A stretch of DNA of 18,432 bases. It comes from Candidatus Hydrogenedentota bacterium (GTDB lineage Bacteria > Hydrogenedentota > Hydrogenedentia > Hydrogenedentales > GCA-2746185). Both the position numbers and the translations under genes were made by a program. Position 1 is the stretch's first letter. Every line of letters starts with the position of its first letter. The DNA is taken from assembly GCA_046583315.1 (NCBI GenBank), contig JAYGCN010000054.1:1-18432 (forward strand). The letters run 5' to 3'. The notes under the pieces were generated by a model. That model was not told the origin of the DNA and searched no databases. It saw only the letters and a program-made list of their open reading frames with translations. Shown piece after piece: positions 2,697-18,432 of this stretch.

Positions 2697-3086
2697 TCAA
2701 TCACCGTCAGCAAGAATGGCATGAAGGGGTGAATCGGGATGGGTGAAATATTCGGAATGCGACTGATCTTCAATGATGCCAGACCCCGCTGCATTCACCG
2801 CGTACTCAGCGAGTTCGGCCAACCGTTGATTCATAATATTCGCGTTCGCCGCGTGCCCGAGCAGCACAATCAGATCCTGGGTGAGCACAACAATCACCCT
2901 TTCAACAGGCGTCGTAGAGCCATTCGGTGCCAACCATTCATTCTTCAGCCAGCGCGCCGAATCACGGGACATCGCCTCCAACGTCGGTTTGAAAAAACGA
3001 TCCGGATCGGCCCAATCCTGCTGCTCAAGTTCGGCTGTAGCCTCGGCAATCAACTCGACGAAATCTCTCTTAGTTTCCAACGGCAT
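2697..3086 (-). CDS. Hypothetical helical protein (129 aa)
   Basis: Likely start is the ATG at 3086 (MPLETKRDF...), overlapping the end of the upstream gene by 17 nt. 6-nt gap to the next gene. The longer ORF call to 3320 overlaps the upstream gene heavily. Confidence 0.65.
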   Translation of the reverse strand: MPLETKRDFVELIAEATAELEQQDWADPDRFFKPTLEAMSRDSARWLKNEWLAPNGSTTPVERVIVVLTQDLIVLLGHAANANIMNQRLAELAEYAVNAAGSGIIEDQSHSEYFTHPDSPLHAILADGD

Positions 3087-3915
3087 CACCTGCTGATTCC
3101 CGCACCATCGCTTGGCGAATATTTTTCCCATCGTTCGCCGCCGAGAACAGAATATGATTGAAGGATTCGAGCGCCGGATCGGATGCCGCATCGAGTCGTT
3201 GATAAATGAAAAGAAGCAACGGAATCGTATCGCCCTCCCCATCCACTTCACGATACGCAATATACGTAATTTTCCACCCGCTGCTCGTCTGCGCGACGCC
3301 CTTGTGAAAACGCGTATCATCGTTGGTGACCACGACCGTCGTTTTTACCGCTTTCGAAAGTCCCAGGGTCGAATCGTGCACCAATCGCTCTCCCAAATCC
3401 GCAATTGAATCGAATGCATCTTGCACCATTTTTGCAGCAACCTCAACCGAAGGCATGGTCTTCTCAGATGGAAGTCCCACCGAAAAAATAATCACTTGTG
3501 TTCTGTCACCTTCGTCGGCGGAGACCAGATCGATGGATGTCAAAAGCGTTTCGTCTTGCAAGCGGAAGCTATGGAAGCGCTGATCCATTGCCCGCGTAGA
3601 TTCTACTTGTTCATAACCGTCACTCAGAAGAATGGCCGCGTGATTCGAAATCGTCGCCGTTCCATCCCCCTCATCAGGCCTACGACCAATGCTAATGGCA
3701 AGATATCCAAATCCAACAATTATCAAGGTGATGACTGTTGCAATCTCAAAATACTTTTGGCGATTAATCGATTGTTGGTGGTCAGGGTCGCGAAGAATTT
3801 TCCCACTTTCATCGACAGCTGGCACCGCACCGCATTTTGCACACGGCCTCGGCTCGCCACTGAGAACGTCAAAGGTGAGCGCCTCGCCGCAGGAGGGACA
3901 TTGAATGCTGTTCAC
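3070..3915 (-). CDS. Hypothetical membrane protein with N-terminal zinc ribbon, one TM helix and an extracytoplasmic domain
   Basis: CPSC-x16-CAKC zinc-ribbon motif, then TM IATVITLIIVGFGYLAISI and a ~200-aa soluble domain. The GTG start overlaps the upstream stop (GTGA). Confidence 0.75.
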   Translation of the reverse strand: MNSIQCPSCGEALTFDVLSGEPRPCAKCGAVPAVDESGKILRDPDHQQSINRQKYFEIATVITLIIVGFGYLAISIGRRPDEGDGTATISNHAAILLSDGYEQVESTRAMDQRFHSFRLQDETLLTSIDLVSADEGDRTQVIIFSVGLPSEKTMPSVEVAAKMVQDAFDSIADLGERLVHDSTLGLSKAVKTTVVVTNDDTRFHKGVAQTSSGWKITYIAYREVDGEGDTIPLLLFIYQRLDAASDPALESFNHILFSAANDGKNIRQAMVRESAGDAVGN

Positions 3916-4256
3916 GATGGTGGAGACTCCTCTGGAGGTTGCGATTCAGATTGAAACTGACCGACCATGTCGCTGGAAGTGTCCACCTGCAATTCAAGCA
4001 TACAGGTTTGATTGTCGGCTCGTGTACCCGATATTTTCACGCGAAACACGTATTCATCGATGGGCTGAGGGGATTCAACGCCAATTTTCGTCAGATACGC
4101 CTCACTTTTAGCGTATTTCAACGCGAGAATACTCGCCCGCTGTGAGCGCTTTCGTTCTTCTTCGCGCTCTTCTTTGGATTTCGGTGGTAAATCCATCAGA
4201 AGCGTACGCAGAAAACCGCGACGACTGGCTTGGCTATTCCTCGGTTTTTTGGGCAT
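3912..4256 (-). CDS. Hypothetical protein with an N-terminal twin-arginine-like motif
   Basis: 114 aa. SRRGFLRTLL motif followed by a charged, not hydrophobic, region. First gene of the minus-strand cluster, coupled to the next gene. Confidence 0.6.
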   Translation of the reverse strand: MPKKPRNSQASRRGFLRTLLMDLPPKSKEEREEERKRSQRASILALKYAKSEAYLTKIGVESPQPIDEYVFRVKISGTRADNQTCMLELQVDTSSDMVGQFQSESQPPEESPPS

Positions 4257-4531: not shown

Positions 4532-5995
4532 ATGAATCTCAGAGCCGAATTCGACGCGCTTGACGAAAATCGCATGGCCAGCTATGTTACGTCGGTCATA
4601 CTACTCGTCGTGTGCACAGTAGCTTCCATCGGGTCCCTCTACATGTGGTTGGACTACGATCCCACTCGTCTGCTCGAAGCCGAAATTCCTGGCTACGACA
4701 GCCTACCACCGGGTGCCGCAAGCAGTGCCACCAAAGCAGACCTGACCGGCGTATTCGAAGCCATGGAAGGTCAGCCTTCCGACTTACCCGGCAACTGGCC
4801 CAGTTTCCGCGGTCCCTCCTTCGACAACATCAGCGCAGATGCTCCCACACTCGCAACATCTTGGCCTGCCAACGGCCCCGAAATTTTATGGTCCGTCGAT
4901 ATCGGTAACGGGTATGCAGCACCTTCAGTGTTGAACGGAATCGTCTACCTGATGGATTACGACGAAGAGGATCGCAAAGATCTCTTGCGCGCGTTTTCGT
5001 TGGAAGACGGATCGGAAATTTGGCGACGCTCCTACAAAGTTATGGTGAAACGAAATCATGGCATGTCCCGGACCATTCCCGCTGTGACTGAAAGCACCAT
5101 CGTCACGATAGGCCCCAAATGTCACGTCGTCTGTCTCGACACGGCGACCGGCGATTTCAAATGGGGCATCGATCTGCAATCCGACTACGGCACGGTTGAA
5201 CCGCTGTGGTACGCCGCGCAATGTCCGCTCATCGAAGATGGAAAAGTCTTACTCGCGCCATGCGGTACCGACGTACTGATGATGGCAGTCGACTGCGATA
5301 CGGGTGAGGTGCAATGGACGACTCCCAATCCACGCAAGTGGGACATGTCGCATGCCTCCATCATTCCTATGACGATTCTCGGCAAGAAAATGTATGTCTA
5401 CGCCGCACTGGGAGGCATTCTGGCCGTGTCTGCAGAAGAAGATGATATCGGTTCGATACTCTGGGAGATTCACTGGGTCGCCAAAGTTGTCGCCCCCTCG
5501 CCGGTACCAGTCGGCGACGATCACATTCTCATAACGGCAGGCTACGGCACCGGAAACATGATGTTAAAGATTGTCGAATCTGGCGGGACGTATTCCGCAG
5601 AAGTCGAATATGCCCACGCGCCAGGTGATGGCCTCTCCTGTGAACAACAAACACCCATCTACAGCGACGGGCTTCTCTACGGCATCATGCCCAAAGATGC
5701 CGGATCGCTGAAGGGTCAATTCGTTGCCTACAATCCAGACGGCAGCCTTAACTGGTCCAGCGGCAGCGACAACCGATTCGGCTTCGGCCCCTTCCTGAAA
5801 GCCGACAATAAATTTTACATCCTCGACGATCACGGCGTGTTGACCATGCTCGAAGCGAGCACGAGCGGTTACAAGCAATTGGGTCAGGCCGAAGTCCTGC
5901 ACGGACACGACCCCTGGGGGCCCATCGCACTCGCGGGTTCACGAATGTTGTTACGCGATATGGATAATCTTATCTGCGTGGAAATAGGGGCTTAG
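4532..5995 (+). CDS. Membrane-anchored PQQ-binding-like (BamB/PQQ_2) beta-propeller protein
   Basis: N-terminal TM helix. WPSFRGP start motif typical of these propellers. Repeated Trp-docking motifs (EILWS, GSEIWR, GDFKWG, GEVQWT, GSLNWS). Confidence 0.85.
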   Translation: MNLRAEFDALDENRMASYVTSVILLVVCTVASIGSLYMWLDYDPTRLLEAEIPGYDSLPPGAASSATKADLTGVFEAMEGQPSDLPGNWPSFRGPSFDNISADAPTLATSWPANGPEILWSVDIGNGYAAPSVLNGIVYLMDYDEEDRKDLLRAFSLEDGSEIWRRSYKVMVKRNHGMSRTIPAVTESTIVTIGPKCHVVCLDTATGDFKWGIDLQSDYGTVEPLWYAAQCPLIEDGKVLLAPCGTDVLMMAVDCDTGEVQWTTPNPRKWDMSHASIIPMTILGKKMYVYAALGGILAVSAEEDDIGSILWEIHWVAKVVAPSPVPVGDDHILITAGYGTGNMMLKIVESGGTYSAEVEYAHAPGDGLSCEQQTPIYSDGLLYGIMPKDAGSLKGQFVAYNPDGSLNWSSGSDNRFGFGPFLKADNKFYILDDHGVLTMLEASTSGYKQLGQAEVLHGHDPWGPIALAGSRMLLRDMDNLICVEIGA

Positions 5996-5998
5996 ACG

Positions 5999-7000
5999 AT
6001 GAAAGAAACCGTTCGCAAAGTTAATCATCCCGTCATCGTTGGTGCCGTCATGCTCGCGATCGCTATCGCGTACTTCGCCTTGCTCGGACAATCCGGATTC
6101 CAGGAACCCAGCGCGGGTATTCAGTACGACGTAGCCACCTATCGCGATATCGACAACGTTGATACCCGCTTCGAAGAAGTCGGGCAGCTCGATCCCAAAA
6201 TGGAAAGTCCGCAGACCATGGCCGTGTCCGAGGACGGGCGCATCTTTATCGCAGGCGAAAACGAACTCGTCGTGTTCGGTGACAACGATACTGAAATTGA
6301 TCGCTTCCCGATTAGCGGCAAGGCCAAATGCATGACCGTTACACCGAAAAACGAAATCTTCATCGGATTCGACGATCACGTCGAAGTCCTGGCTATCGAC
6401 GGCACCGTGAAAGCCGTGTGGGATGTGATTGAACCGTTTCCCTACATCACGTCTATTGCCGTGCTCGACGAAAATGTCTTTGTCGCCGCTGCTGGCAACA
6501 AAGTGGTGATGCAATACGACCTCGACGGCAACCTCATCCGCGAAATCGGTAAGAAGAACGAAGATGAAGACATCCCTGGAATCGAAGTACCAAGCCCCTA
6601 CCTGGATCTCGCTGTAAATGACGAAGGCGACCTATGGGTGGTAAATCCCGGACTGCTCGGCATGGAACGTTATCGAAACGACGGCTCAATCGTTACATCA
6701 TGGTACCGGGCTACCCTGCAACTAGAAGGCTTCTCAGGATGTTGCAATCCGACACACGTGGCCTTCATGAACGATGGACGGCTCGTGACCGCCGAAAAAG
6801 GCTTGGTGCGTGTGAAGCTATACGACGTGACCGACGGCGAATATCAAGAACTCGTCGCCGGTTCAAAATTATTTCCAAGGGAGCAATCCCTGAAAGATAT
6901 CGCGGTGGACAAGCAAGACAGAATATTACTGCTCGATCCCAGAATCAACGCAGTGCGAATATTTGATGAGAAGGAGAAGGTTGATGGACAGCAAAGTTAG
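5999..7000 (+). CDS. N-terminally anchored NHL/6-bladed beta-propeller-like protein with a GFSGCCNP motif
   Basis: N-terminal hydrophobic helix. Blade-like repeats (PQTMAVSEDGRIFIA, DLAVNDEGDLWVVN, DIAVDKQDRILLLD). Vicinal Cys pair. 3-nt gap after the previous gene. Confidence 0.8.
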   Translation: MKETVRKVNHPVIVGAVMLAIAIAYFALLGQSGFQEPSAGIQYDVATYRDIDNVDTRFEEVGQLDPKMESPQTMAVSEDGRIFIAGENELVVFGDNDTEIDRFPISGKAKCMTVTPKNEIFIGFDDHVEVLAIDGTVKAVWDVIEPFPYITSIAVLDENVFVAAAGNKVVMQYDLDGNLIREIGKKNEDEDIPGIEVPSPYLDLAVNDEGDLWVVNPGLLGMERYRNDGSIVTSWYRATLQLEGFSGCCNPTHVAFMNDGRLVTAEKGLVRVKLYDVTDGEYQELVAGSKLFPREQSLKDIAVDKQDRILLLDPRINAVRIFDEKEKVDGQQS

Positions 7001-7178
7001 TCGACACGAATTCCTGCAGAAGGTTGGACGAAATGGATTGTTGCTCGCGCTGGGAGGCGTAGGTACGGCAGCAGCTCACGGGTCCAAGACCGTAGAGGAA
7101 TGTTTCAACCACAATTACTGCACAGACTGCTTCAGTTTCAAGGGCTGCACCCTGCCCGAGAAGAAGGAGGTGACGTAA
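6984..7178 (+). CDS. Small Cys-rich protein (64 aa) with a Tat-like leader
   Basis: Strong RBS AAGGAG at 6971-6976. MDSKVSRHEFLQ..., a hydrophobic stretch, then C-x5-C-x2-C-x5-C. Its stop overlaps the next start (TAATG). Confidence 0.75.
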   Translation: MDSKVSRHEFLQKVGRNGLLLALGGVGTAAAHGSKTVEECFNHNYCTDCFSFKGCTLPEKKEVT

Positions 7179-7738
7179 TGAGCGAACTCAAGAAATTCGA
7201 TCGACGCGATTTCATGCGCACCGCCGCAGCCGTAGGTTTCGTCGGCGCAACCTGGTCCGCTTCTGGCGAGAAAACCGAAGGCACCGTGTGGCAACTCGAT
7301 CCCGCCAAGTGTACCCAATGCGGTCGTTGCTCGACCCACTGCGTACTGGCGCCATCTGCGGTTAAATGCCTCAACCAATTCAACATCTGCGGCTACTGCG
7401 ACCTCTGTTTTGGTTATCTCCAGCCGGGTTCACGCAACCGTGATACCGGTGCAGAAAACCAGCTATGCCCCACCGCCGCCATCAAACGTACCTACATTGA
7501 AGATCCCTATTACGAATACCTTATCGACGAAGACCGTTGCATCGGTTGCGCGAAATGCGTCAACGCATGTCTCGTTTTCGGAAATGCATCCTTCTACCTG
7601 CAAATCCGTCAGGACATCTGTATTAACTGCAACGAATGCTCCATCGCCAAAGCCTGCCCATCGGACTGCTTCAGCGAAGTACCCGCGTCGGAACCCTACA
7701 TGTTCTTGACCGAGGAAGAGGGCCCTACAAAATCATGA
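7178..7738 (+). CDS. Tat-exported polyferredoxin (up to four [4Fe-4S] clusters)
   Basis: RBS AAGGAGG before the ATG at 7178. DRRDFMR Tat motif. 18 Cys, including CTQCGRCSTHC, CGYCDLC, CIGCAKCVNAC and CINCNEC..ACP. Confidence 0.88.
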   Translation: MSELKKFDRRDFMRTAAAVGFVGATWSASGEKTEGTVWQLDPAKCTQCGRCSTHCVLAPSAVKCLNQFNICGYCDLCFGYLQPGSRNRDTGAENQLCPTAAIKRTYIEDPYYEYLIDEDRCIGCAKCVNACLVFGNASFYLQIRQDICINCNECSIAKACPSDCFSEVPASEPYMFLTEEEGPTKS

Positions 7739-9030
7739 GGAATCTTCTCAGCATAGGGATAACACTTCTCGTGTTGCTCGCAGCATCCGGAGCCCAGGCC
7801 ATCGAATTGAAGTTTCCGCCGCCCGATTTCCAGACCTCCTACGCCTTGCCGGATATCTATGTGCCAACACCCGATGCAGGATTCGGCTGGTGGGACTCCG
7901 TCATTCTCTTCGCCGCGCTATCGATGGCAACGTTTTTCGTGTTCAAAGCTCGCTCACGACGCGGACTCTTCCTCCTCAGTATCTTTTCGCTCGCCTTTTT
8001 CGGCTTCTATCGTGACGGCTGCATCTGTCCGATAGGTTCCACCCAGAACGTGATGGCCGCCGTATTCATTCCTGACGTCGGCATATCCGCAATCGTCGTA
8101 TCCTTCTTCGTGTTACCGCTATTGTTCTCGCTATTTTACGGACGCGTTTTCTGCGCATCCGTCTGCCCGCTCGGAGCCATTCAAGAGCTCGTCGCCGTAG
8201 CACCCATTCGAATCTCCCCAGCACTCGAACGTGTTCTCGGTCTGGGCAAATACCTCTACCTCGGACTCGCGACACTCGGTGTGGCAACCGGTGCAGGCTT
8301 CCTCATATGCCGTTACGATCCCTTCGTCGGCATCTTCCGCATGGGCCACAGTTACAACATGCTCCTCGCCGGTGCCGCGATCTTGATTCTGGGAGTATTC
8401 GTAGCCAGACCCTACTGCCGATTCCTCTGCCCCTACGGCGTGCTACTCGGCTGGATGTCGTACTTCTCAAAATTCCACCTCGACATTCCCCCGTCTCCAT
8501 GCGTGTCGTGCCGCTTGTGTGAAGACTCTTGTCCCTACAACGCCATCGACATGCCGACCCCTGCCAATCTGGTCGAGAAGCCGGAAGTAGGCAAGGCGCG
8601 CATTCGTTGGACGCTCGCCGCCTCACCGCTGCTCATAGTGGCCGGTGCAGTGGTCGGTTACATGATGCACGAGCCTCTTTCCCGCATGCACCCTACGGTC
8701 TCCCTCAGCGAACAGATCGCCCAGGAAGATCTCGGCCTTCGTAGCGGCGAGAATCTCGATACCGATACCTTCCGCACCAGCGATGTCACCACAACGGAAT
8801 TACATGCCGACGCAATGGCCGTGCGCGAAACCTTCAAAACGGGTGGGGCATGGCTTGGCGCGTTTATGATGCTAATTGTAAGTTTGAAATTGGTTGGTCT
8901 GTCGATAGTAAAGAAACGCGAAATTTTCACGCCTCGCAAGGAAATGTGCTTCAGTTGCGGTCGGTGTTATCCCTATTGCCCAGTCGAAGCCGAAGAAGAA
9001 GAATTCGAGCTGGGAACACGAGTAGCCTGA
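7735..9030 (+). CDS. Integral membrane 4Fe-4S protein of the NapH/MauN/NosR/RdxA-like polyferredoxin family
   Basis: ATGA overlap with the previous stop. Signal peptide ending AQA and multiple TM helices. Motifs GCICPIG, FCASVCPLG, YCRFLCPYG, CVSCRLCEDSCP and CFSCGRCYPYCP. Confidence 0.88.
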   Translation: MRNLLSIGITLLVLLAASGAQAIELKFPPPDFQTSYALPDIYVPTPDAGFGWWDSVILFAALSMATFFVFKARSRRGLFLLSIFSLAFFGFYRDGCICPIGSTQNVMAAVFIPDVGISAIVVSFFVLPLLFSLFYGRVFCASVCPLGAIQELVAVAPIRISPALERVLGLGKYLYLGLATLGVATGAGFLICRYDPFVGIFRMGHSYNMLLAGAAILILGVFVARPYCRFLCPYGVLLGWMSYFSKFHLDIPPSPCVSCRLCEDSCPYNAIDMPTPANLVEKPEVGKARIRWTLAASPLLIVAGAVVGYMMHEPLSRMHPTVSLSEQIAQEDLGLRSGENLDTDTFRTSDVTTTELHADAMAVRETFKTGGAWLGAFMMLIVSLKLVGLSIVKKREIFTPRKEMCFSCGRCYPYCPVEAEEEEFELGTRVA

Positions 9031-10781
9031 TGTTAGAAAAAAGAGAGTTTGAAAAGAACGATTTCATGTGGCGCGTGTCTGCGATGTTAACCCTGGTCGC
9101 AGGCTCGTTCTCGTTGCTCGTATTCGTCATGCTCGTTATCAACTACCTGCAGATCCGTGCAGCCGATCCGGTAGACAACGTGATGCTCACGCAAATGCGC
9201 ATCGAATACGCCAATCTGCCGGATCAAGACGCCGTTCTCGCGAAACGCATCCAGGATCTCGATCTGCTTACGCGCAAAGCATTCTTCACCACACAGAATC
9301 ATCTGCGTATCGGCGCTATCATGCTACTCGTCGGTATTACTGTATTCATGGTCGCCTTCAAAAACATGGCGCGCTGGAGACCCGAGCGCCCTCAGCTTGC
9401 GGAGACCCCCACGGCCGAATACGAATTTCTTGCCATGGCCGAATCGCGAAACCTGATCACCTGGGGTGCCGTAATCCTGCTCGGCGGAGGCTTGATGGCC
9501 TCCTATTTCACCGAGAGCGCGTTGGTACCAAAAGCCGACGTGGGAATAGCAGCGGCACCCGGCAGTGAACCCGAAGCTGAAGTGGTCGCCAAAGTTTTCC
9601 CCGATTGGGATGCCGTCGAAAAACAGTGGCCGACATTTCGCGGGGCCGGGGCATTGGGCCAATCAAAATTCGATACTGTTCCAACAGAATGGAATGTGGA
9701 ATCAGGCCAAAACATCAAATGGAAAGTGGAATTGCCACGCATCGGCACGAACTCCCCCGTCATCTGGGATAACCGCCTATTCATGACCGGGGCCGACGAA
9801 GAAGTACGCGAAGTGTATTGCTACGACACCGAGACTGGCGAACTTCTGTGGACCAAGACCGTTGAAGGCCTCGAAGGCACACCCGACGAATCACCCCAGA
9901 TCAACGAAGAAACCGGATTCGCCGCACCCACCATGGCGGTACACGGCGACCAGGTGTTTGCCCTATTCGCGAACGCCGATATTGTTTCCTACGACTTCGA
10001 AGGCAATCAGATCTGGGGATACAACCTCGGTCTGCCTGACAATCACTACGGACATTCCTCCTCCCTGCTCACCTACGGCAACCTCCTATTTGTGCAATAC
10101 GACCAAGCCGAAAACAGCGAGCTCATCGCGCTCAACGCGGCGACGGGTGACGATGCTTGGGCCATGCCGCGCGACGAAATTTCCTGGGCCTCCCCCATCC
10201 TCGCACACACCGAGTTCGGTCCGCAGATCATCCTCGCCTCCGAAGAAAACGTCGACGCGTACGACCCGACCTCCGGCAAACTGCTCTGGCGTGAAGAAGT
10301 ACTCGGCGGCGAAGTCGCGCCCTCCCCGGCATACAGCAACGGCATCGTGTTCGCCGCAAACGAATGCGCCATGGCTGCGGGCATTCAAATCGGCGGTTCC
10401 AGCGACGCGGTTGAATCCGAAGTCATCTGGGAATACGACATGATGCTGCCCGAAGTATCCAGCCCTATCGGTGACGGTGAACGATTCTATTTCGCAACGT
10501 CCATCGGAGAAATCGTATGCCTCGATGCCAAAACTGGCGAAGAGCTGTGGATGTCCGAATACGACGACGGCTTCTATTCGTCTCCAGTATTGGTCGGTGA
10601 CAAAATCTACATCTCCGACATGCCCGGCAACATGTACATCGTTCGTGCCGGCTCAGAATACGAATTGCTGAACACCATCCCCATGGGCGACACCATTTTC
10701 GCAACACCAGCGTTCCTTGACGGACGCATCTATATACGCACCGCAACGGCCCTTTACTGTATCGAGAATCAAGATGTCTAG
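9030..10781 (+). CDS. PQQ-binding-like beta-propeller with an N-terminal three-TM membrane domain
   Basis: TGATG overlap. Three hydrophobic helices, then WPTFRGAG, NIKWKVELP..G.NSPVIWDNR, repeated TGELLW/SGKLLW/TGEELW, FYSSPV and ATPAFLDGRIYIRT motifs. Confidence 0.88.
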   Translation: MLEKREFEKNDFMWRVSAMLTLVAGSFSLLVFVMLVINYLQIRAADPVDNVMLTQMRIEYANLPDQDAVLAKRIQDLDLLTRKAFFTTQNHLRIGAIMLLVGITVFMVAFKNMARWRPERPQLAETPTAEYEFLAMAESRNLITWGAVILLGGGLMASYFTESALVPKADVGIAAAPGSEPEAEVVAKVFPDWDAVEKQWPTFRGAGALGQSKFDTVPTEWNVESGQNIKWKVELPRIGTNSPVIWDNRLFMTGADEEVREVYCYDTETGELLWTKTVEGLEGTPDESPQINEETGFAAPTMAVHGDQVFALFANADIVSYDFEGNQIWGYNLGLPDNHYGHSSSLLTYGNLLFVQYDQAENSELIALNAATGDDAWAMPRDEISWASPILAHTEFGPQIILASEENVDAYDPTSGKLLWREEVLGGEVAPSPAYSNGIVFAANECAMAAGIQIGGSSDAVESEVIWEYDMMLPEVSSPIGDGERFYFATSIGEIVCLDAKTGEELWMSEYDDGFYSSPVLVGDKIYISDMPGNMYIVRAGSEYELLNTIPMGDTIFATPAFLDGRIYIRTATALYCIENQDV

Positions 10782-13269
10782 CGAACTCGAAATATTAGAA
10801 TACGACATCGCCGATATCGAGGCGATCGTCGAAGAAACCGGAACCGGTCCCGAAGCGGTCATCCCGATTCTTCAGGCGATCCAGAAAAAATATCGATACC
10901 TGCCCGGTGTGGCACTCGAGCGCGTGTGTGAACTGACCAATATTCTGCCATCAGACATCGAAGGCGTTGCGACCTTCTACACCCAATTCCGAAGCGAACC
11001 CGTGGGCAAACACGTCATCAGCCTCTGCGACGGTACCGCCTGCCATGTCAAAGGATCCATCGACATTCACGAGGCCGTCTGCGAAGAACTGGGCATCAAA
11101 CCCGGCGACGACACTGATGACGAGGGAAATTATACGATTCAGAAAGTCGCCTGCTTGGGATGTTGTTCGCTGGCACCGGCACTCAAGATTGAAGAAGTCA
11201 CCTACGCCAACGTCGGCATCGATTCCATTACCCCCGTGTTCGAAGATTTTGTCAAACGGGAAGCCGAAGCATTAAACGGAAAAACAGAACTCAAACCCCG
11301 CAAAACCCATCTCAACGGCGCGGAAATCCGCATCGGTCTGGACTCCTGCTGCGTAGCCAGCGGCACCGATCGAATCGAGGCGGCCCTGGAAGCAGCCCTT
11401 ATCGAAATCGAATCGGACGTACCCATCAAACACGTCAGTTGCGTGCATATGTGCCACCAGGTCCCCGTAATCGAAGTCGTTCAAGAAGGCAAACCGACCA
11501 CGATGTACGTCAAGGTGGACGAAGAAGACATCTCCGAGATCGTGTCCAAGCACTTCAAACCGAAAAACCCTTTGAGCCTGCTGAAGTCAGCGGCCATGAA
11601 GTGGTCCGAACACCTCTACAGCAACCTCGATCAAGAAGAACTCGTCAGTCGCCACGGTTCAGACGTGCGTGACGAAGCCACGAACTCCACATTCCTTTCG
11701 AAACAAGTGCACATCGCGACTGAGTTTCGCGGCGATCTCGATCCCGCAAGTCTCCCGGAATACCTGCAACGCGGTGGGTTTATGGCCTTGGAAAAATGTC
11801 TCTTCGGCTCAACCGGCGGCGTCGCGCTGATGGCCGATCACCTCGGCCAGAAGCCCAAGTCGCGTTCCACCGAAACGGGCTGGGGTTCCGAACGTATCAT
11901 CAAAGAGATTCTTGACAGTGGTTTGCGAGGACGTGGCGGTGCCGGATTTCCAACGGGACGCAAATGGCAATTCGTAAAAGGCGCGCCCGGTGAGAAGAAA
12001 TACGTCATCTGCAACGGGGACGAAGGCGACCCCGGCGCATTCATGGACCGCATGATTCTTGAGTCGTACTCTTATCGCGTGATTGAAGGCATGGCGATCA
12101 GCGCATTGGCTGTCGACTCAGATGAAGGCATCCTGTACATCCGCGCCGAATACCCCCTCGCCACGAAACGCCTTCGTCAGGCCATCCTCGATTGCGAAGA
12201 AGCCGGCATCATCGGCGACGACATATTGGGCAGCGGAAAATCATTCCACCTTCGCGTAAAAGAAGGCGCCGGAGCATTCGTGTGTGGCGAAGAGACTGCC
12301 TTGATCGCGTCCCTCGAAGGAAAACGTGGAATGCCCACCATACGGCCACCATTCCCGGCCATCAAAGGCCTCTGGGGTAAACCCACCCTCATCAACAATA
12401 CCGAAACCGTCGCGATGGTGCCCTGGATCATACGCAATGGCGCAGAAAAGTTTGCCGAACTGGGGACCGAACGCAGTAAAGGCACCAAAGTATTCTCCTT
12501 GGCTGGCAAGATTCGTCACGGCGGCCTGATCGAAGTGCCCATGGGCATCACCATCAACGAAATCGTCGAAGACATCGGCGGTGGCATCGCGGACGGACAC
12601 ACCTTCAAAGCCATGCTCGTCGGCGGGCCTTCCGGCGGCTGTATCCCCGCGTCACTCGGCCATACGCCTGTGGACTACGAAGCCCTCTCCGAAATCGGCG
12701 CCATGATGGGTTCGGGCGGACTCATCGTGTTGGACGATACCGACTGCATCGTCGAGATGTGTCGCTACTTCCTCTCCTTTACCCAGGAAGAATCCTGCGG
12801 AAAATGTACGCCCTGCCGTATCGGTACCATGCGCATGAAAGAAATGCTCGAACGCCTCTGCAACGGCAAAGGCAAGTTAAGCGATCTTGAACTGCTGGAC
12901 GAGCTCGGGCAGGTCGTCAAAAATCAAAGTCTCTGTGGCCTCGGAAAAACCGCCCCGAACCCCGTGCTGACCGCCCTCAAATACTTCAAAGAAGAATTCA
13001 TCGCACACGTCAACGGAAAATGCCCGGCGGGAAAATGCAAACCCCTGATCGATTACTGGATCATCGATACCTGCATCGGCTGTACGAAATGCGAACAGGT
13101 CTGCCCGATTGACGATTGCATCGATTCTACGCCATTCAAATTCCACACCATCAATTTGGATACCTGTACCCGTTGCGACGCGTGCCTCCCGGTATGCCCG
13201 ACCAACGCCATAATCGCGGGCTCACGCGATCCCGAAGAAGTAAAACAAGCTGAGGAAGCACTGGTTTGA
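10774..13269 (+). CDS. NuoE-NuoF-like fusion (HydC-HydB / BfuC-BfuB type) NADH-binding FMN iron-sulfur flavoprotein
   Basis: NuoE-like CDGTAC...CLGCC [2Fe-2S]. Second thioredoxin-like domain SCC...CVHMC. NuoF motifs GLRGRGGAGFPTG, CNGDEGDPGAFMDR, GAGAFVCGEETAL, GGPSGG and ESCGKCTPCR...SLCGLG. C-terminal 2x[4Fe-4S]. The ATG at 10774 overlaps the previous stop. Confidence 0.92.
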   Translation: MSSELEILEYDIADIEAIVEETGTGPEAVIPILQAIQKKYRYLPGVALERVCELTNILPSDIEGVATFYTQFRSEPVGKHVISLCDGTACHVKGSIDIHEAVCEELGIKPGDDTDDEGNYTIQKVACLGCCSLAPALKIEEVTYANVGIDSITPVFEDFVKREAEALNGKTELKPRKTHLNGAEIRIGLDSCCVASGTDRIEAALEAALIEIESDVPIKHVSCVHMCHQVPVIEVVQEGKPTTMYVKVDEEDISEIVSKHFKPKNPLSLLKSAAMKWSEHLYSNLDQEELVSRHGSDVRDEATNSTFLSKQVHIATEFRGDLDPASLPEYLQRGGFMALEKCLFGSTGGVALMADHLGQKPKSRSTETGWGSERIIKEILDSGLRGRGGAGFPTGRKWQFVKGAPGEKKYVICNGDEGDPGAFMDRMILESYSYRVIEGMAISALAVDSDEGILYIRAEYPLATKRLRQAILDCEEAGIIGDDILGSGKSFHLRVKEGAGAFVCGEETALIASLEGKRGMPTIRPPFPAIKGLWGKPTLINNTETVAMVPWIIRNGAEKFAELGTERSKGTKVFSLAGKIRHGGLIEVPMGITINEIVEDIGGGIADGHTFKAMLVGGPSGGCIPASLGHTPVDYEALSEIGAMMGSGGLIVLDDTDCIVEMCRYFLSFTQEESCGKCTPCRIGTMRMKEMLERLCNGKGKLSDLELLDELGQVVKNQSLCGLGKTAPNPVLTALKYFKEEFIAHVNGKCPAGKCKPLIDYWIIDTCIGCTKCEQVCPIDDCIDSTPFKFHTINLDTCTRCDACLPVCPTNAIIAGSRDPEEVKQAEEALV

Positions 13270-14795
13270 TCAAGCTAAAAATAAATAATAAGGAAATCGA
13301 GGTCGAAGGAGGTACCACCCTAATTCATGTCGCGCGCGACATGGGCATCGAAGTCCCTACCCTGTGTTACTGGGAAGGCGTGAAACCCATGAACTCGTGC
13401 ATGTTGTGCGTGATGCGCGATTCCAACACAGGCATCTTGCACCCCTCCTGCTCCACCATGGTCCAGGAAGGCATGGACATCGAGACCGACAGCGGCGATG
13501 TATGTGAAGCGCGCAAAGACGTGCTCGAACTCACCATCAGTGAACACGTCGGCGATTGCGAAGCCCCCTGTACCCATACCTGTCCGGCTTCCATGAATAT
13601 CCCCGTGATGATGCGCCAGATTTACGAAGGCGATCTCGATGCCGCGGCGTATACCGTTACCAACGGTCTCGTATTCCCCGGCACCCTCGGATACGTATGC
13701 CCCGCGCCCTGCGAGAGCCCATGTCGTCGCAAAGGCTACGACGAAACCATGAAAATAAAGCGACTGCACCGCGAAGTCTCCGAAAAAGCGCTAAAGGATA
13801 ATCCCGAATTGCTCGACTGCCCCGAAGATTCCGGAAAACACGTCTCCATCATAGGCGGCGGACTCACTGGCATGGCCTCGGCCTGGGTATTGCGCAAACA
13901 CGGCCACGCAGTCACCATCTACGAAAAAGAAGCCAAGGCCGGCGGAAAAGTCCGCAACCTCACCGAAGAAGAACTGCCCAAAGAAGTACTCGACGCCGAA
14001 ATCGATTTCATTCGTCAGCTGGGTGTCACCTTCGAATACAATCGCGAAATAAACGGCAACGGCGACCTCGAAGCCATCATGGCAAATTCCGACAGTGTGA
14101 TCGTTGCCTGCAAGGAAGTCGCCAAACCCGGTGGAAAAATCTTTGAAGCCAAGGAACACAAACTCGACGTGCGCGCTGTCGGTAATGGCAAAACCACCGC
14201 CACCTGGGTCGACAAATACCTCAAAAGCGTCGAGCCGACACCCGATCCCAAACTTTTCGATTCCAAATACGGCAAACTCGACAAGTCAAATCTCAGCCGT
14301 CTGCTTGAGAACAAGACAGCCATGACGATCCCCAAAATTGAAGGCGAACTCGTCGATGCACGCGCCGAAGCAGGACGCTGCCTGCACTGCGATTGCCGCA
14401 AGCGGGTCAGTTGTGGCCTACGCAAGTATGCTTCGGACTACGGTGCCCAGAAAAAGAAATACTTCGCCTCCGAAACACCCGACGTGCGCATTCTCGGCAG
14501 TGGAAACGTTATTCTGGAACCCGGAAAGTGTATTCGCTGCGGGCTGTGCGTCGCCATCGCCGAAAAACACGGCGAAGACATCGGACTCACCTTCGCCAAT
14601 CGCGGCTTCGACATGGAAATTCGCGTTCCCTTCGACCACAGCTTCGATGACGCACTGAAAAAGTCGGCATCCGAATGCGTGGAGGCCTGCCCCACGGCAG
14701 CAATTGCGTTCCGAAATGTGGAAGACGTTCACGGCTGCCACACCTCAACACAAATCAAGTTGGTACGCCCCGTTCCAACATCACCGACGTCATAA
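13266..14795 (+). CDS. NuoG/HydA-N-like [2Fe-2S] + GltD/NfnB-like Fe-S/FAD fragment + 2x[4Fe-4S] protein (BfuA-like subunit lacking a catalytic domain)
   Basis: TTGA overlap. IEVPTLC...SCMLC...PSC [2Fe-2S]. HVGDCEAPCTHTCP and VCPAPCESPCRR (GltD-type Fe-S domain). IIGGGLTG Rossmann motif. EAGRCLHCDC...C, KCIRCGLC and CVEACPTAAI. Confidence 0.85.
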   Translation: MIKLKINNKEIEVEGGTTLIHVARDMGIEVPTLCYWEGVKPMNSCMLCVMRDSNTGILHPSCSTMVQEGMDIETDSGDVCEARKDVLELTISEHVGDCEAPCTHTCPASMNIPVMMRQIYEGDLDAAAYTVTNGLVFPGTLGYVCPAPCESPCRRKGYDETMKIKRLHREVSEKALKDNPELLDCPEDSGKHVSIIGGGLTGMASAWVLRKHGHAVTIYEKEAKAGGKVRNLTEEELPKEVLDAEIDFIRQLGVTFEYNREINGNGDLEAIMANSDSVIVACKEVAKPGGKIFEAKEHKLDVRAVGNGKTTATWVDKYLKSVEPTPDPKLFDSKYGKLDKSNLSRLLENKTAMTIPKIEGELVDARAEAGRCLHCDCRKRVSCGLRKYASDYGAQKKKYFASETPDVRILGSGNVILEPGKCIRCGLCVAIAEKHGEDIGLTFANRGFDMEIRVPFDHSFDDALKKSASECVEACPTAAIAFRNVEDVHGCHTSTQIKLVRPVPTSPTS

Positions 14796-14825: not shown

Positions 14826-15764
14826 ATGAAACGTAAAGCTGGTTTTACCCTCATCGAACTACTCGTTGTCATCGCCATCATTGGAATTCTCGCGGCAATT
14901 CTTCTGCCCGCACTTTCCCGTGCCCGCGAGGCCACGCGCCGGGCATCCTGCGCCAACAACCTCAAGCAACTCGGCTTGTCATTGAAAATGTACGCCAACG
15001 AATCACGTAATAATCTCTACCCCCGAACCCACGGCGACCAACCCTTCAGCGATCCGACGCTGACCAACGAACCGGTCGGTTGTGATTTCGATTCGTTTCA
15101 GGCAGGCCCCGCTTTCGCTCCGAAAATGGATACCGTATACCCAGAATACATTGACGAACAAGGCGTCTTTGTGTGTCCATCGGATCGCGACGCCGCAATC
15201 GATAACCCCTTGCTCCAGGTTGCCGACGACGGGAGCGGCATCTGTGATTACGTCGGTGTCATCACCGGAGGCGACCAAAGTTACAATTACCTCGGTTACG
15301 TTCTGGACCGCGTCGACGAAACCTATCCCATGAACCCGGCCTTTCCCGGTGCCAGTTTTGATGCACCCATCCAGTTTTCCGGCCTCGCTTTCCTGATCGG
15401 CACAACCACATTCAACGAAGACCCCGAAGACGACGGACCGCTTGACGAAAACATCGATCTCACGATCTATGGGATGGGCGGAAATGGCAACGCCGGCACC
15501 GACATCATCTACCGGTTACGCGAAGGCGTCACACGCATGCTCATCACGGATATCAATAACCCCGCGGCATCCGCGCGCTCCCAAACGACGCTACCCATTA
15601 TGTGGGACACGCTTAGCTCAAACATCGGAGGCAGAATCGGCTACAACCACGTGGCATCCGGTTGCAACACGCTATACATGGATGGACACGTCGCCTGGGT
15701 GCACCAAGGCGAAGTATTCCCCGCCACCGTGTCCCACGCACAGTTCAATGCGCTATTCGAATAG
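14826..15764 (+). CDS. Prepilin-type N-terminal cleavage/methylation protein, DUF1559 / H-X9-DG-CTERM family
   Basis: [46 protein letters not shown]; internal VFVCPSD; C-terminal [16 protein letters not shown]. Confidence 0.93.
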
Positions 15765-15767
15765 GCA

Positions 15768-16457
15768 CTAGACAAGTTCGAGCGTAAAACGCAACGTGAA
15801 ATAGATTCCCGTTGCCAGAAAGACGATGCCCGTGCCCCTGCGTGCCCACTTCTCTGCAAGTTGCACGTTCGAGAACACGCCGCCTACCTTGTTCGCCATG
15901 AAAACGATCAGCATCGCGAAAATCAGTACCGGTACAGCCACGCCCAAGGCATATACGAAAGGCAACAACACGCTCGATTCGTGAGTAACCGCCAGTGGAA
16001 TCATACCACCAAAGAACAACGCCGCTGTCGTCGGACAAAATGACATGGCAAACACGATTCCCAGCAGTGCTGAAATCCACACCCCCCCATCGGCCGCTTT
16101 CTTCTGCACCTCTTCTTTCAATTTTCCACGATTAAGTTGCACGTCCAACAATCCAAGCAGAAACATCGCCGTAACAACCAGAATTGGCCCCAGCAGTTTG
16201 AGAAAATAATCCTGCAACCACAACGAGACCGCCGGAACCGACAGCAAACTCCCCACGAGCAGCATACCCAAAACCACATACGCCAAGGCCTGTCCAGCAA
16301 TATAAAATAGTCCCGACAGCAACGCATACTTCGGATCATTCACCTTGCGCGCAATAAACGTGATCGCGGCAATGTTCGTGGCCATCAAGCAGGGACTCAC
16401 CGCCGTCAGAAATCCGAACCAGAACGCCGCACCCGTCGCCAGCGCGAAGTCACTCAT
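15768..16457 (-). CDS. CcdA/DsbD-like membrane protein, ArsG-family (aromatic arsenical permease-like)
   Basis: About six TM helices. TAVSPCLMATNIAAITFI and AMSFCPTTAALFFG carry the two CcdA-type membrane Cys. The start overlaps the upstream stop (ATGA). Confidence 0.8.
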   Translation of the reverse strand: MSDFALATGAAFWFGFLTAVSPCLMATNIAAITFIARKVNDPKYALLSGLFYIAGQALAYVVLGMLLVGSLLSVPAVSLWLQDYFLKLLGPILVVTAMFLLGLLDVQLNRGKLKEEVQKKAADGGVWISALLGIVFAMSFCPTTAALFFGGMIPLAVTHESSVLLPFVYALGVAVPVLIFAMLIVFMANKVGGVFSNVQLAEKWARRGTGIVFLATGIYFTLRFTLELV

Positions 16458-16951
16458 GGCGCCTCATCCATGAACGCCCGCAAGCTGGAATCGATGTACT
16501 CCATGTACGCAGTCTTATCGTGTACCAGATCCCAGATGTCATCCAGATTCTCCCAGCGAACTTCCTCGCCGGACTCCAGCTCCACCAGGACGACGGATTT
16601 CGAATACAAATCAAAATCGACCGGATAATGTTTGTTCTCCGGAGTCGTCATGTTCAGTGATCGCCACTGCAATCCACCCGAATCAAGCAGGCCAGCAAAC
16701 CCTTCCTGAACCGCCTCCAGCGCGTAGCCCTCCAGCTTCTCACAGGTCTCGCAATAGACATCGTTGTAGAAAAAATACACCGCCCAATCCGGCTCGACAC
16801 CCTCCACAATCGGCAGCGTCGCCCCGAGCGGACGTCGCTCCGATGCAGGCGATTCCGATGACGGACTGTCTTTCAGAACGGTATAGGCAAGGCTGCAAGC
16901 CACAAAACCGAGTAACACCGTATTGATCACGTATTTTTGAGTTCGATTCAT
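16454..16951 (-). CDS. Membrane-anchored thioredoxin-like CxxC protein, ArsF-family-like
   Basis: Likely ATG at 16951 (MNRTQKY...). N-terminal hydrophobic anchor. VYFFYNDVYCETCEKLE, LQWRSLN...ENKHY...SVVLV...WENLDDIWDLVHDK pattern as in ArsF-family proteins (from memory). Confidence 0.78.
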   Translation of the reverse strand: MNRTQKYVINTVLLGFVACSLAYTVLKDSPSSESPASERRPLGATLPIVEGVEPDWAVYFFYNDVYCETCEKLEGYALEAVQEGFAGLLDSGGLQWRSLNMTTPENKHYPVDFDLYSKSVVLVELESGEEVRWENLDDIWDLVHDKTAYMEYIDSSLRAFMDEAP

Positions 16952-17007
16952 GCCTGAATTATCCGTCAGTCGCTGGCCCAGATCAAGGTAAAGCGAATAA
17001 AATGACA

Positions 17008-17057
17008 CGCGATTCGGTTAATAGTACAAACCATTCGCGACCTTTTCATGATAGAAT
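17008..17057 (+). promoter_or_regulatory. Divergent control region: extended -10 (TGaTAGAAT, 17049-17057) and an imperfect inverted repeat (17008-17039)
   Basis: CGCGA..GGTT / AACC..TCGCG arms lie between the divergent arsF-like and HTH genes. RBS GGAGGTG at 17067-17073. Confidence 0.4.
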
Positions 17058-17078
17058 GCGCTATATGGAGGTGATTGC

Positions 17079-17327
17079 ATGACTACGCAGACCGATACTG
17101 TCTTAACACTCGAAGACGCTGCCGCATTCCTCAAAGTCTCGGAGGATGTTGTCCAGAATCTGCTCGAACAGCAAGACCTCGCCGGGCGTAAAATCGGCGG
17201 AGAATGGCGCACCACCACACGAGCCATCATCAGCTACGTCGACGGTGTCCCCATGCAGATGACCTGCTGCACAACCGAAGATGGATCAACCGTCTGTTGC
17301 ACCCCCGGCCAATCGGGCTGTTGCTGA
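17079..17327 (+). CDS. Excisionase-like (HTH_17/MerR-superfamily) DNA-binding protein with a Cys-Cys-rich C-terminal tail
   Basis: Strong RBS. VLTLEDAAAFLKVSEDVVQNLLEQQDLAGRKIGGEWR is a classic HTH_17 pattern. Tail TCCTTEDGSTVCCTPGQSGCC. Confidence 0.88.
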   Translation: MTTQTDTVLTLEDAAAFLKVSEDVVQNLLEQQDLAGRKIGGEWRTTTRAIISYVDGVPMQMTCCTTEDGSTVCCTPGQSGCC

Positions 17328-18431
17328 TTACGAACCGATGCAATACAACTTTTCCGACGTGCGGATGAATAATTTTCCGTCCGAGATGGCTGGTGATGCT
17401 TTGCTACCCCGGCCACCAAACGCGCCGCGCGACAGTATCTCGAACTTCTCACCAATCGAAACGACCACCACGCCGCCGTCTTCGTCAACCATATAGATTT
17501 TCCCATCGGCAGCGACCGGGGACGACCAGAATCGTTTGTTGTCCGGCAGATCGCCCACCCACAATTCCTCGCCCGATTTCGGATCGAAACACGCAAGCGT
17601 TTTCTGCACGCCGTTCAACACATACAACTTGCCATCATAGAAAACCGGCGTCGGCACATCCGTCGTGCGACTGTTATAAACCCACGCCGCCGTTTCGATA
17701 TCCTTCTGCGCCTTCACGCCCGGATTGAATGCATAAGCCAGGCTACCCCTGGGTTGCGCATTAAAAATAAGATCGCCTATCACGATGGGCGACGGGATCA
17801 AACGCCAATTCGAGCGCTTGCGAGGATTGTCCGCAAATCGCCATCGTTCCTCACCCGTGGCGATGTCATGCCCGGTCGTATAATCCCCGCCCTGCACAAC
17901 AATCACCGGCTCCTCTCCAACTTCATACGGAACAACCGTCGTATAGGAATCGTAAGACTCTCCGATGGCATCGCTGTCCCGATGATGATGAAACACGATA
18001 TCGCCCGTCTTTGCATCAAGCGCGAGCAGAAACGAATCACCATCATGATACTCGCGCAACGGTATCTCCGAACGCCACTGCCCCGTCAATATCGGGTAAT
18101 AGAGATTACCTTTGTACAAAGTCGGACTCGAAGCATAGCCAAATTGCAATCCAATACGCCCAAGATCCTTGATATTGCGCGACCAGACCTCATTCCCGTC
18201 ATGGTCCAGCGCAAACACCGGGCCGCTTCCAAAGGTAAAATACACACGCTCCGCATCCGCAACCGGAGAACACGCCGCCAGCGTATTGCGCGGGATGGGG
18301 CCATGCGCCTCAGCAAGCTGTTTTTGCCACAACACCTTTCCGCTGTCCCGATCAAGGCTAATCCCAAACAATTTGCTCAGCTCCGCATCGTTTGATACCA
18401 AAAAAACCTTGTTGCCCACGATAACGGGTGA
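17328..18431 (-). CDS. 5'-truncated PQQ-binding-like beta-propeller protein
   Basis: The frame stays open to the window edge (SPVIVGNKVF...). Motifs SGKVLWQ, ACSPVAD, FGYASSPTL, TGEERWR, DVPTPV, WSSPVAADGKIY and ASPAISDGKLFIRT. The stop directly abuts the HTH gene stop. Confidence 0.88.
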   Translation of the reverse strand, partial: SPVIVGNKVFLVSNDAELSKLFGISLDRDSGKVLWQKQLAEAHGPIPRNTLAACSPVADAERVYFTFGSGPVFALDHDGNEVWSRNIKDLGRIGLQFGYASSPTLYKGNLYYPILTGQWRSEIPLREYHDGDSFLLALDAKTGDIVFHHHRDSDAIGESYDSYTTVVPYEVGEEPVIVVQGGDYTTGHDIATGEERWRFADNPRKRSNWRLIPSPIVIGDLIFNAQPRGSLAYAFNPGVKAQKDIETAAWVYNSRTTDVPTPVFYDGKLYVLNGVQKTLACFDPKSGEELWVGDLPDNKRFWSSPVAADGKIYMVDEDGGVVVVSIGEKFEILSRGAFGGRGSKASPAISDGKLFIRTSEKLYCIGS

Positions 18432-18432
18432 A

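Follow-up and report, generated by a model that had tools for sequence, protein, structure and literature searches.

Among solved structures, the nearest relatives of the locus studied here are the NfnABC/StnABC enzymes (PDB 9n5u, 9bov and 8oh5), in which the electron path runs FAD-A7-A6-A3-A2-A1-B1 (PMC12018979; statements taken from articles refer to the parts of them that were available). In enzymes of types 2 and 3 from the same Bfu family (Wor-Bfu, NiFe-Bfu, Nuo-Bfu and Mbh-Bfu), the BfuA subunit is a wire to extra subunits, and none of the Bfu types named in the available part of PMC9304861 has NapG/H-like subunits, twin-arginine translocation (Tat) ferredoxins or propellers. Pairs of the NapGH/MauMN/NosR type associate a four-cluster Tat ferredoxin with a membrane protein of the Fer4_5 type that carries two CX3CP motifs. 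We analysed a window of 18,432 nucleotides (nt), i.e. the whole contig JAYGCN010000054.1 of a Candidatus Hydrogenedentota bacterium genome (assembly GCA_046583315.1, 96.7% complete). Eight co-oriented open reading frames (ORFs), g1 to g8, occupy positions 4532-14795 on its plus strand and join a Bfu core to membrane and exported Fe-S proteins and to propellers. This operon is real and widespread, and is a variant of the Bfu family that is likely undescribed. To judge from its sequence, it could conduct low-potential electrons outward for the reduction of a molecule handled by a linked glycosyltransferase/ATP-binding cassette (ABC) core, a reading that we favour at slightly less than an even chance. 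The eight genes, with lengths in amino acids (aa) where given, are as follows.

g1, 4532-5995, plus strand: membrane-anchored PQQ_2/BamB-like beta-propeller (Pfam PF13360), predicted periplasmic.
g2, 5999-7000, plus strand: NHL-type propeller (domain search) with a GCCNP motif; N-terminal anchor in the window copy.
g3, 6984-7178, plus strand: 64-aa protein with a Tat-like leader and the motif C-x5-C-x2-C-x5-C-x-LP; one metal cluster predicted.
g4, 7178-7738, plus strand: Tat-signal polyferredoxin (TAT_signal and Fer4 matches), with four predicted [4Fe-4S] clusters and a spare Cys64.
g5, 7735-9030, plus strand: NapH-like membrane Fe-S protein (Fer4_5 match) with seven predicted transmembrane helices.
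g6, 9030-10781, plus strand: N-terminal membrane domain followed by a PQQ_2 propeller.
g7, 10774-13269, plus strand: BfuC-BfuB fusion (NuoE, NuoF and ferredoxin parts) with cluster C1, the B5 site, the FMN/NADH domain, cluster B1, the B2 site and clusters B3 and B4.
g8, 13266-14795, plus strand: NfnA-like BfuA (2Fe-2S, DPD-II, Rossmann and 4Fe-4S parts) with predicted clusters A1, A2, A3, A6 and A7 and half of an FAD domain.

The genes are separated by a 3-nt gap (g1/g2), overlap by 17 nt (g2/g3) or 8 nt (g6/g7), or meet in TAATG (g3/g4), ATGA (g4/g5), TGATG (g5/g6) and TTGA (g7/g8). All ORFs and junctions are as described in the original prediction, which was made from the letters of the window alone and had reported eight co-oriented genes with overlapping or 3-nt junctions. 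A promoter scan stayed at chance level (4 found vs. 7.2 expected).

We searched for the operon in g4-centred loci, obtained from the best 80 matches of two scans of a species-genome collection (180 and at least 537 g4 matches); this is a biased sample. After removal of 10 same-contig duplicates, 150 loci were available, from which L044 was dropped (g4 not called), and the length of 83 of the 149 remaining loci allows for the entire operon. The taxon of each locus was taken from its database record. All eight genes stand in order in 63 of the 83 long loci, and the seven larger genes (ignoring the 64-aa g3) in 73. The full order is found in 23/29 Bacteroidota, 9/10 Hydrogenedentota, 23/33 Planctomycetota, 3/3 Lentisphaeria and 5/5 other loci, in 0/2 Verrucomicrobiota and in 0/1 Kiritimatiellae, where g3 is fused to g4. 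The original prediction had staked its case on synteny of all eight genes across phyla and on co-conservation of the propellers with the NuoEF/A genes: the former was found in several phyla, and the latter is seen in the seven-gene order. When g1 is not beside g4, it lies at another place of the genome (5 out of 5 genomes tested); the single stoichiometric complex of all eight products that the original prediction had deduced from the junctions is putative. At the level of genomes, g4 was detected in 76 of 135 Hydrogenedentota, in 17 of the 151 Planctomycetota sampled and in 20 of the 201 Verrucomicrobiota sampled. Cultured carriers among the loci are three Labilibaculum records and Perlabentimonas gracilis. 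Correlations of identity between genes (0.76-0.92) reflect shared descent and were not used as evidence, nor was a Fisher test.

Some loci depart from this layout. In three Verrucomicrobiota loci (L064, L065 and L086), a protein of 309 aa that matches nothing in Pfam or NCBIfam takes the place of g1 upstream of g2, which has a twin-arginine leader in these loci; a 66% match to the 309-aa protein is found on another contig of the window genome (G000:C186). In four Bacteroidota loci (L039, L044, L053 and L068), a MaoC-like dehydratase gene is inserted between g6 and g7. Finally, L034:7853-9964 carries a tandem pair of g2 genes, the second with a twin-arginine leader, and g3 was not detected there.

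The core of the system is formed by g7 and g8. In a PDB search, the nearest solved structures of g7 are the NfnB chains 9n5u_B and 9bov_B, and Pfam recognizes the domains Complex1_51K and NADH_4Fe-4S. Ligands were counted in 92 aligned copies, the window copy included, with clusters named after PMC12018979 and PMC9304861. The ligands of the C1 [2Fe-2S] cluster (C85/90/127/131), carried by the BfuC part fused to BfuB, and those of the B1 [4Fe-4S] cluster (C675/678/681/721) are present in 92/92 copies, as are C658, H745 and C750 of the B2 site, the fourth residue of which (C755) is kept in 91/92. The eight Cys of the B3/B4 ferredoxin domain are found in 90-91/92 copies. At the B5 site, which binds zinc in the bifurcating enzyme of T. 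sibiricus (PMC12018979), C193 and C223 are invariant (92/92), and C192 and C227 are Cys in 75 copies and Ser in 17. Bifurcating beta subunits are marked by A/E232, M234, GGPSG and a Phe near the FMN (PMC7311640). The corresponding A422, M424 and GGPSG of g7 are kept in 92/92 copies, and either of two candidate Phe, F502 (92/92) or F560 (87/92), fits the fourth mark. Moreover, g7 is the sole NuoF-like match in the window genome. By sequence, the g7-g8 pair is a Bfu core and not an Nfn. It has the same BfuBC ligands as NfnABC/StnABC and differs from NfnABC by the fusion of BfuC to BfuB, by six additional membrane or exported partners, and by a g8 from which the NADPH-binding domain, of about 190 aa, and the NuoG/Fdh-like part at the C terminus are missing.

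This loss is visible in the alignment with 9bov_A, whose residues 4-285 and 478-671 align to residues 2-282 and 299-480 of g8; the gap of about 190 residues (285-478) is the part holding the second (NADPH) Rossmann motif. This motif is present in 0 of 89 g8 copies, a count for which the in-genome pattern control was empty and the PDB alignment is the sole control. From the Nfn path, g8 is predicted to retain A1, A2, A3, A6 and A7; the Cys for A6 and A7 are found in 87-89 of 89 copies and the FAD half-domain in most of them. Three Lentisphaeria loci (L069, L073 and L083) encode g8 forms of 341-359 aa without any Rossmann domain. A tie between this loss of the FAD domain and the loss of the linked glycosyltransferase (GT4, see below) was rejected, GT4 being present in one of the three genomes. 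In genome G462 (L231:13166-16288), BfuC, BfuB and BfuA are fused in a single chain from which the whole NfnL insert is gone. Since the NADPH motif is missing from all 89 copies, the FAD domain from three loci and the NfnL insert from this fusion, NADPH would not be the third substrate, and g8 would be a wire, as BfuA is in type 2/3 enzymes. The wire likely exits at cluster A3, given that the G462 fusion retains only A1-A3. The original prediction had noted the absence of a conventional catalytic subunit. There is indeed no working third-substrate site, but g8 keeps an NfnL-like relic from which the NADPH half has been deleted. In contrast to type 2/3 Bfu enzymes, the operon has no tungsten/molybdenum, NiFe or pumping subunits; the weak resemblance of its g4 to 9mqx_E is a point in common with them. 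In G462, the fusion is directly followed by genes for a propeller, an ABC ATPase and a permease, a minimal version of the system.

The genes g3, g4 and g5 encode predicted Fe-S proteins of the membrane and the periplasm. In 61 of 73 loci, a scan reported an ORF with the Cys motif in the interval from g2 to g4; the one reported in L072 is g4 itself. In g4, 16 Cys are present in 150/150 aligned sequences and a seventeenth, C64, in 146/150; the best PDB match is 9mqx_E (E 1.7e-5), a chain from a Bfu complex. The g5 protein has two CX3CP motifs and a 2x[4Fe-4S] ferredoxin domain split by a helical hairpin, and all its 15 Cys are kept in 131-132 of 132 sequences. Its score with the NapH model TIGR02163 is 44.9 bits for a cut-off of 213, and TIGR00397, used in the same NapGH family test, gave 19.1 for a cut-off of 179. 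A structure model of g5 (pLDDT 82, pTM 0.82) shows seven long helices, two of which hydropathy missed. Helix alternation counted from the cleaved signal peptide, together with the positive loops, would place C96/C98/C192 on the periplasmic side and the CX3CP and ferredoxin motifs on the cytoplasmic side. A fold search with this model returned no Foldseek match at E 0.001, and the best Z score (6.3) concerns a helical hairpin only; there is no evidence of a new fold. NapH-type proteins had no solved structure among the structures searched. Compared with the NapGH/MauMN/NosR pairs, which g4-g5 resemble, the scores are far under the cut-offs, and g5 has three extra invariant Cys on the predicted outer face and a split ferredoxin domain, and is coupled to a Bfu core; the operon contains neither a nitrate reductase nor NosZ. 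The window genes scanned gave no Pfam match to an FMN-binding domain or ApbE, as opposed to the flavinylated NapH-like systems (PMC8238504). Two database proteins fuse g4 to g5 (P0121) and g3 to g4 and g5 (P0122), and g3 is fused to g4 in L080. Longer g4 forms account for 7 matches, of which 2 are clean fusions, the rest being apparently frameshift products. The g3-g4-g5 and g7-g8 fusions argue for joint assembly.

The remaining three proteins are propellers. In g1, which has one transmembrane helix (residues 22-40), H176, S179, R180, H274 and R475 are invariant in 121/121 sequences and C231 is kept in 120. The conserved motifs (KRNHGxSR, QC, H274 and R475) delineate a candidate ligand-binding or catalytic face. 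In g2, the vicinal pair C248-C249 (GCCNP) is present in 140/141 sequences, with further conserved E266/K267/R271/K273. The pair lies just ahead of the blade-start Pro of an NHL repeat, on the side that we take to be the binding face. The g2 protein also gives a weak lactonase-family match, and its copies in L034, L065, L086 and L099 have twin-arginine leaders. With two transmembrane helices by hydropathy and probably a third at about 141-160, g6 is less conserved than g1 and g2, and is likely a scaffold. Although g1 and g6 share the fold of pyrroloquinoline quinone (PQQ)-dependent quinoprotein dehydrogenases and of BamB, they score far under the cut-offs for these families (19.6 and 42.6 vs. 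480 with TIGR03075 for quinoprotein dehydrogenases; 34.2 and 61 vs. 285 with TIGR03300 for BamB), have inner-membrane anchors and invariant motifs of their own, and do not co-occur with pqqC. This gene was found in 5 of the 135 Hydrogenedentota genomes, all from the family of the window genome, 4 of them among the 76 with g4. It was found in 0 of 5 genomes of other phyla, in a scan in which no positive control matched. PQQ as the cofactor was rejected, as pqqC does not track the operon, and is unlikely for these propellers; PQQ may be obtained by scavenging. The label 'PQQ-like' of the original prediction is justified by the PQQ_2 fold, but as a fold label only (pqqC in 5/135 genomes, the operon in 76/135). 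PQQ-like propellers without cofactor give 11-16 matches per genome. A pqq run (39-aa peptide, pqqB, C, D and E-like genes) stands on another contig of the window genome (G000:C143:3765-6963, L113). A further PQQ_2 propeller is encoded at 17328-18432 on the minus strand of the window, cut by the contig end, and such propellers are also seen near the operon in L002, L005, L010 and L017.

Four more genes are common to the loci, and encode a GT4 glycosyltransferase with a YCxNC motif, an additional propeller, an ATPase like LolD and a duplicated FtsX permease of 1,090 aa. The operon proposed in the original prediction is real, but it is only part of a 12-13 gene system. The GT4/propeller/ABC core of this system and the alternative partner module of the core (see below), which give the best clue to function, had been overlooked. 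The core is located downstream of the operon in Bacteroidota and in many of the Hydrogenedentota, on the upstream side in Planctomycetota, and divergently in L023, L025 and L027. In the window genome, it is carried by another contig (G000:C185:1-12246, L089), which reads from its end: propeller, YCxNC GT4, propeller, LolD-like ATPase, 1,087-aa FtsX permease and three propellers. Among the 135 Hydrogenedentota genomes, 74 have both GT4 and g4, 57 have neither and 4 are discordant, one of these having g5. Thus, GT4 is found in 74 of the 76 g4 genomes of this phylum, with both genes on one contig in 34 of the 74. The permease was found in 5/5 tested g4 genomes without GT4, in four cases no more than about 9 kb from g4, and likewise in 5/5 in another test. 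The YCxNC motif of GT4 is kept in 50-51 of 51 sequences and C261 of P7 in 64 of 64. A link to hopanoids was considered and rejected as a general feature: cyclase matches occur in 48/135 genomes without tracking g4, and the window genome has no squalene synthase match. In G006 (L105:5230-11344), an operon for a ferredoxin, a radical SAM protein, a DUF116-polyprenyl synthase, a prenyltransferase and a squalene-cyclase-like protein flanks the cluster, and G002 has a squalene-cyclase-like operon on the same contig as the cluster. In G139 (L107:12037-17966), GT4 is flanked by hpnCDE (two squalene/phytoene synthases and an FAD oxidoreductase), and LytB is also present.

We then examined 20 Planctomycetota neighbourhoods with GT4 but without g4. 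Many of these g4-less cores adjoin genes for a sodium symporter, an AMP-ligase, an aldehyde dehydrogenase (ALDH)-like protein, an iron-containing alcohol dehydrogenase and a HemN-like radical SAM enzyme, together with a halogenase-like flavoprotein, a PaaK-like ligase and a thioesterase; in about six neighbourhoods (L215, L217-L222), GT4 stands apart. The AMP-ligase used as marker is a full-length relative of EhpF (E 3e-45). In the phenazine pathway of Pantoea, EhpF-O turn a phenazine dicarboxylate into a hydroxymethyl product (PMC3175449), ehpG encoding an ALDH-family protein (PMC11278526), and GriC/GriD-type pairs convert an aryl acid to the aldehyde (PMC10179220). Neither EhpF/EhpG (PDB 3hgu) nor GriC/GriD is homologous to g1-g8, and unlike the latter they are cytoplasmic and driven by ATP and NAD(P)H; the EhpF-type module nevertheless partners the same core. 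Of the 151 Planctomycetota genomes, 41 have GT4, and each of these also carries g4 (16), the EhpF-type ligase (29) or both (4). GT4 is present in 16 of 17 g4 genomes and in 29 of 29 ligase genomes, and the ligase in 25 of 25 GT4 genomes without g4. The pattern is less clean in Verrucomicrobiota: of 18 GT4 genomes, 14 have g4, 2 the ligase only, 1 g5 and 1 neither. The 135 Hydrogenedentota genomes gave one weak ligase match. The g1 propeller was rejected as a component shared with EhpF-type genomes: its Planctomycetota orthologues essentially follow g4 (17 g4 genomes and G160), G191 having one weak paralogue, with 10 candidates scored per genome.

From these observations we propose that g7-g8 pool electrons from NADH and reduced ferredoxin (confurcation), a 2-oxoacid:ferredoxin oxidoreductase domain match in the window genome being a possible ferredoxin source. 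Electrons would go outward via g5, then via the exported ferredoxins g4/g3, to the periplasmic propellers g1 and g2. The membrane would be crossed between the CX3CP site and the C96/C98/C192 site of g5, perhaps with the help of Cys64 of g4. The membrane potential is roughly 150 mV, and outward passage would gain reducing power from it. Confurcation of NADH and ferredoxin was computed at about -390 mV, which with the membrane potential comes close to the acid/aldehyde couple (NADH -280 mV, ferredoxin -500 mV, acid/aldehyde -560 mV; PMC9304861, Table 1). The conduit would drive a low-potential reduction of the molecule handled by the GT4/ABC core, a task comparable to that of EhpF/G together with alcohol dehydrogenase, i.e. 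bringing an acid to the aldehyde or alcohol level. The architecture of a conduit is probable, and the outward direction of flow is somewhat favoured. By analogy, g1-g8 might tentatively be given the same chemical job as the EhpF/G module; the presence of a sodium symporter in that module and not with g1-g8 is as expected if the g1-g8 step lies outside. It is doubtful that the system goes as far as a tungsten-free and ATP-free periplasmic acid reductase, in which confurcation and the membrane potential together would bring electrons near -550 mV to a propeller active site and replace the EhpF/G pair.

Several points weigh against an outward conduit for such a step. Reduction of a carboxylate by an Fe-S/propeller enzyme is not known to us unless tungsten, molybdenum or ATP is involved. 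The path across the membrane within g5 is a prediction, and fold searches gave the g5 model no solved structural relative. The B5 site of g7 has its four Cys in just 75/92 copies. With the query used, GT4 was not found in 6 of 20 Verrucomicrobiota g4 genomes, and one Verrucomicrobiota GT4 genome (G439) showed neither module. Both modules are together in four Planctomycetota genomes and one Verrucomicrobiota genome, so the modules need not be equivalent; their alternation may come from lifestyle or descent, kin not being independent. Moreover, the EhpF-type module has another 6-8 tailoring genes for which g1-g8 are no substitute, and the window genome gives just weak matches to them. Finally, heme-copper oxidase subunit I gave five matches in this genome, which also has pqqBCDE; the oxidase matches imply that the system does not occur in strict anaerobes only.

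The same anatomy could work inward, the propellers oxidizing a periplasmic substrate of low potential (aldehyde, aldose or alcohol) and the electrons being bifurcated, via g3/g4/g5, to NAD+ and ferredoxin, as in the cytoplasmic Wor-Bfu. This is equally feasible thermodynamically, aldehyde oxidation (-560 mV) is a known third reaction of Bfu enzymes (PMC9304861), and the relatives detected fit it, i.e. a Bfu complex chain for g4, the quinoprotein dehydrogenase fold for g1/g6 and a lactonase family, weakly, for g2. However, no cofactor is evident, with pqqC in 5/135 genomes and quinoprotein models far under cut-off, and the tie to GT4 and an exporter-type ABC system, like the alternation with an acid-activating module, would go unexplained. 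We consider an inward flow of this kind unlikely. We also regard as rather improbable, although just as feasible in thermodynamic terms, that the conduit keeps an exported cofactor, or a metal/dithiol site of a propeller (Cys-Cys of g2), in the reduced state, the EhpF/G module making a molecule de novo and g1-g8 genomes scavenging and re-reducing it. The coexistence of both modules in 5 sampled genomes would suit this division, as would the many cofactor-less propellers (11-16 matches per genome), the conserved Cys (g2 140/141, P7 C261 64/64, GT4 YCxNC 50-51/51) and the want of biosynthetic tailoring genes in the window genome (weak matches only). Yet this would not account for the absence of g1-g8 from most EhpF-module genomes (25/29) or for the need of a bifurcating core where NADPH/DsbD-type routes exist, and no uptake system is linked. 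A connection through quinones, with g5 acting like NapH and the Bfu and periplasmic arms each exchanging with menaquinone without a direct wire, is less probable still. NapH is a putative quinone-binding subunit (PMC8238504), Nuo-Bfu has been proposed to use menaquinone (PMC9304861), and g7 is the sole NuoF-like gene in an oxygen-respiring genome; but g5 is far under the NapH cut-off with three extra invariant Cys on its predicted outer face, and confurcating to the level of menaquinone would be wasteful in a system that has no pumping subunits. A soluble Nfn-like transhydrogenase beside unrelated envelope genes would suit the long loci in which g7/g8 or g1 are not immediately adjacent (10/83 are without the seven-gene order), but is very improbable given the order kept across phyla, the NADPH domain lost in 89/89 copies, the fusions and the retention of g1 elsewhere (5/5).

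Other genes of the window surround the operon. A prepilin-type DUF1559 protein with an H-X9-DG motif is encoded at 14826-15764, 30 nt after g8; this gene follows g8 in several Hydrogenedentota loci and is not kept outside that phylum. It is followed, at 15768-17327, by convergent genes of the ArsG family (over cut-off, with a weak DsbD match) and the ArsF family (over cut-off), and by a gene for a small HTH_17 protein whose tail is rich in Cys. These genes stand beside the operon in many Hydrogenedentota loci and were not seen in other phyla. Upstream, two divergent genes without Pfam match (3070-4256) include one for a 281-aa protein, which eight related loci also encode upstream of g1. The Oxidored_molyb (Pfam) enzyme encoded at 901-1881, presumably MsrP-like, has a second copy on contig C207, and an MsrQ-like partner was not noticed alongside.

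The original prediction knew of no characterised enzyme with this composition, and our literature and structure comparisons brought up no match either. No description of the operon came up in a search of openly accessible literature. PMC8238504 deals with flavinylated NapH-like systems alone. The operon is not described in the available parts of bioRxiv 10.1101/723874 and PMC10945688, nor mentioned in that of PMC11406978, on Bfu hydrogenases of Hydrogenedentota. The supplement text of PMC9304861, as available, names none of six taxa, and g7 relatives may stand unclassified in its enzyme table. The system would be the first Bfu-family enzyme to reach its third reaction on the other side of the membrane by a simple Fe-S wire. 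Its carriers would number hundreds of species (at least 537 matches among the species genomes), polysaccharide degraders from sediments and digesters, and two orphan gene sets, g1-g8 and the EhpF-type module, would be tied to one core. If the acid reductase holds true, it would help to make a widespread glycosylated molecule or cofactor used by many 'empty' PQQ-like propellers. The operon would also offer a testable handle on these large unexplained propeller families and on electron transfer by NapH-type proteins.

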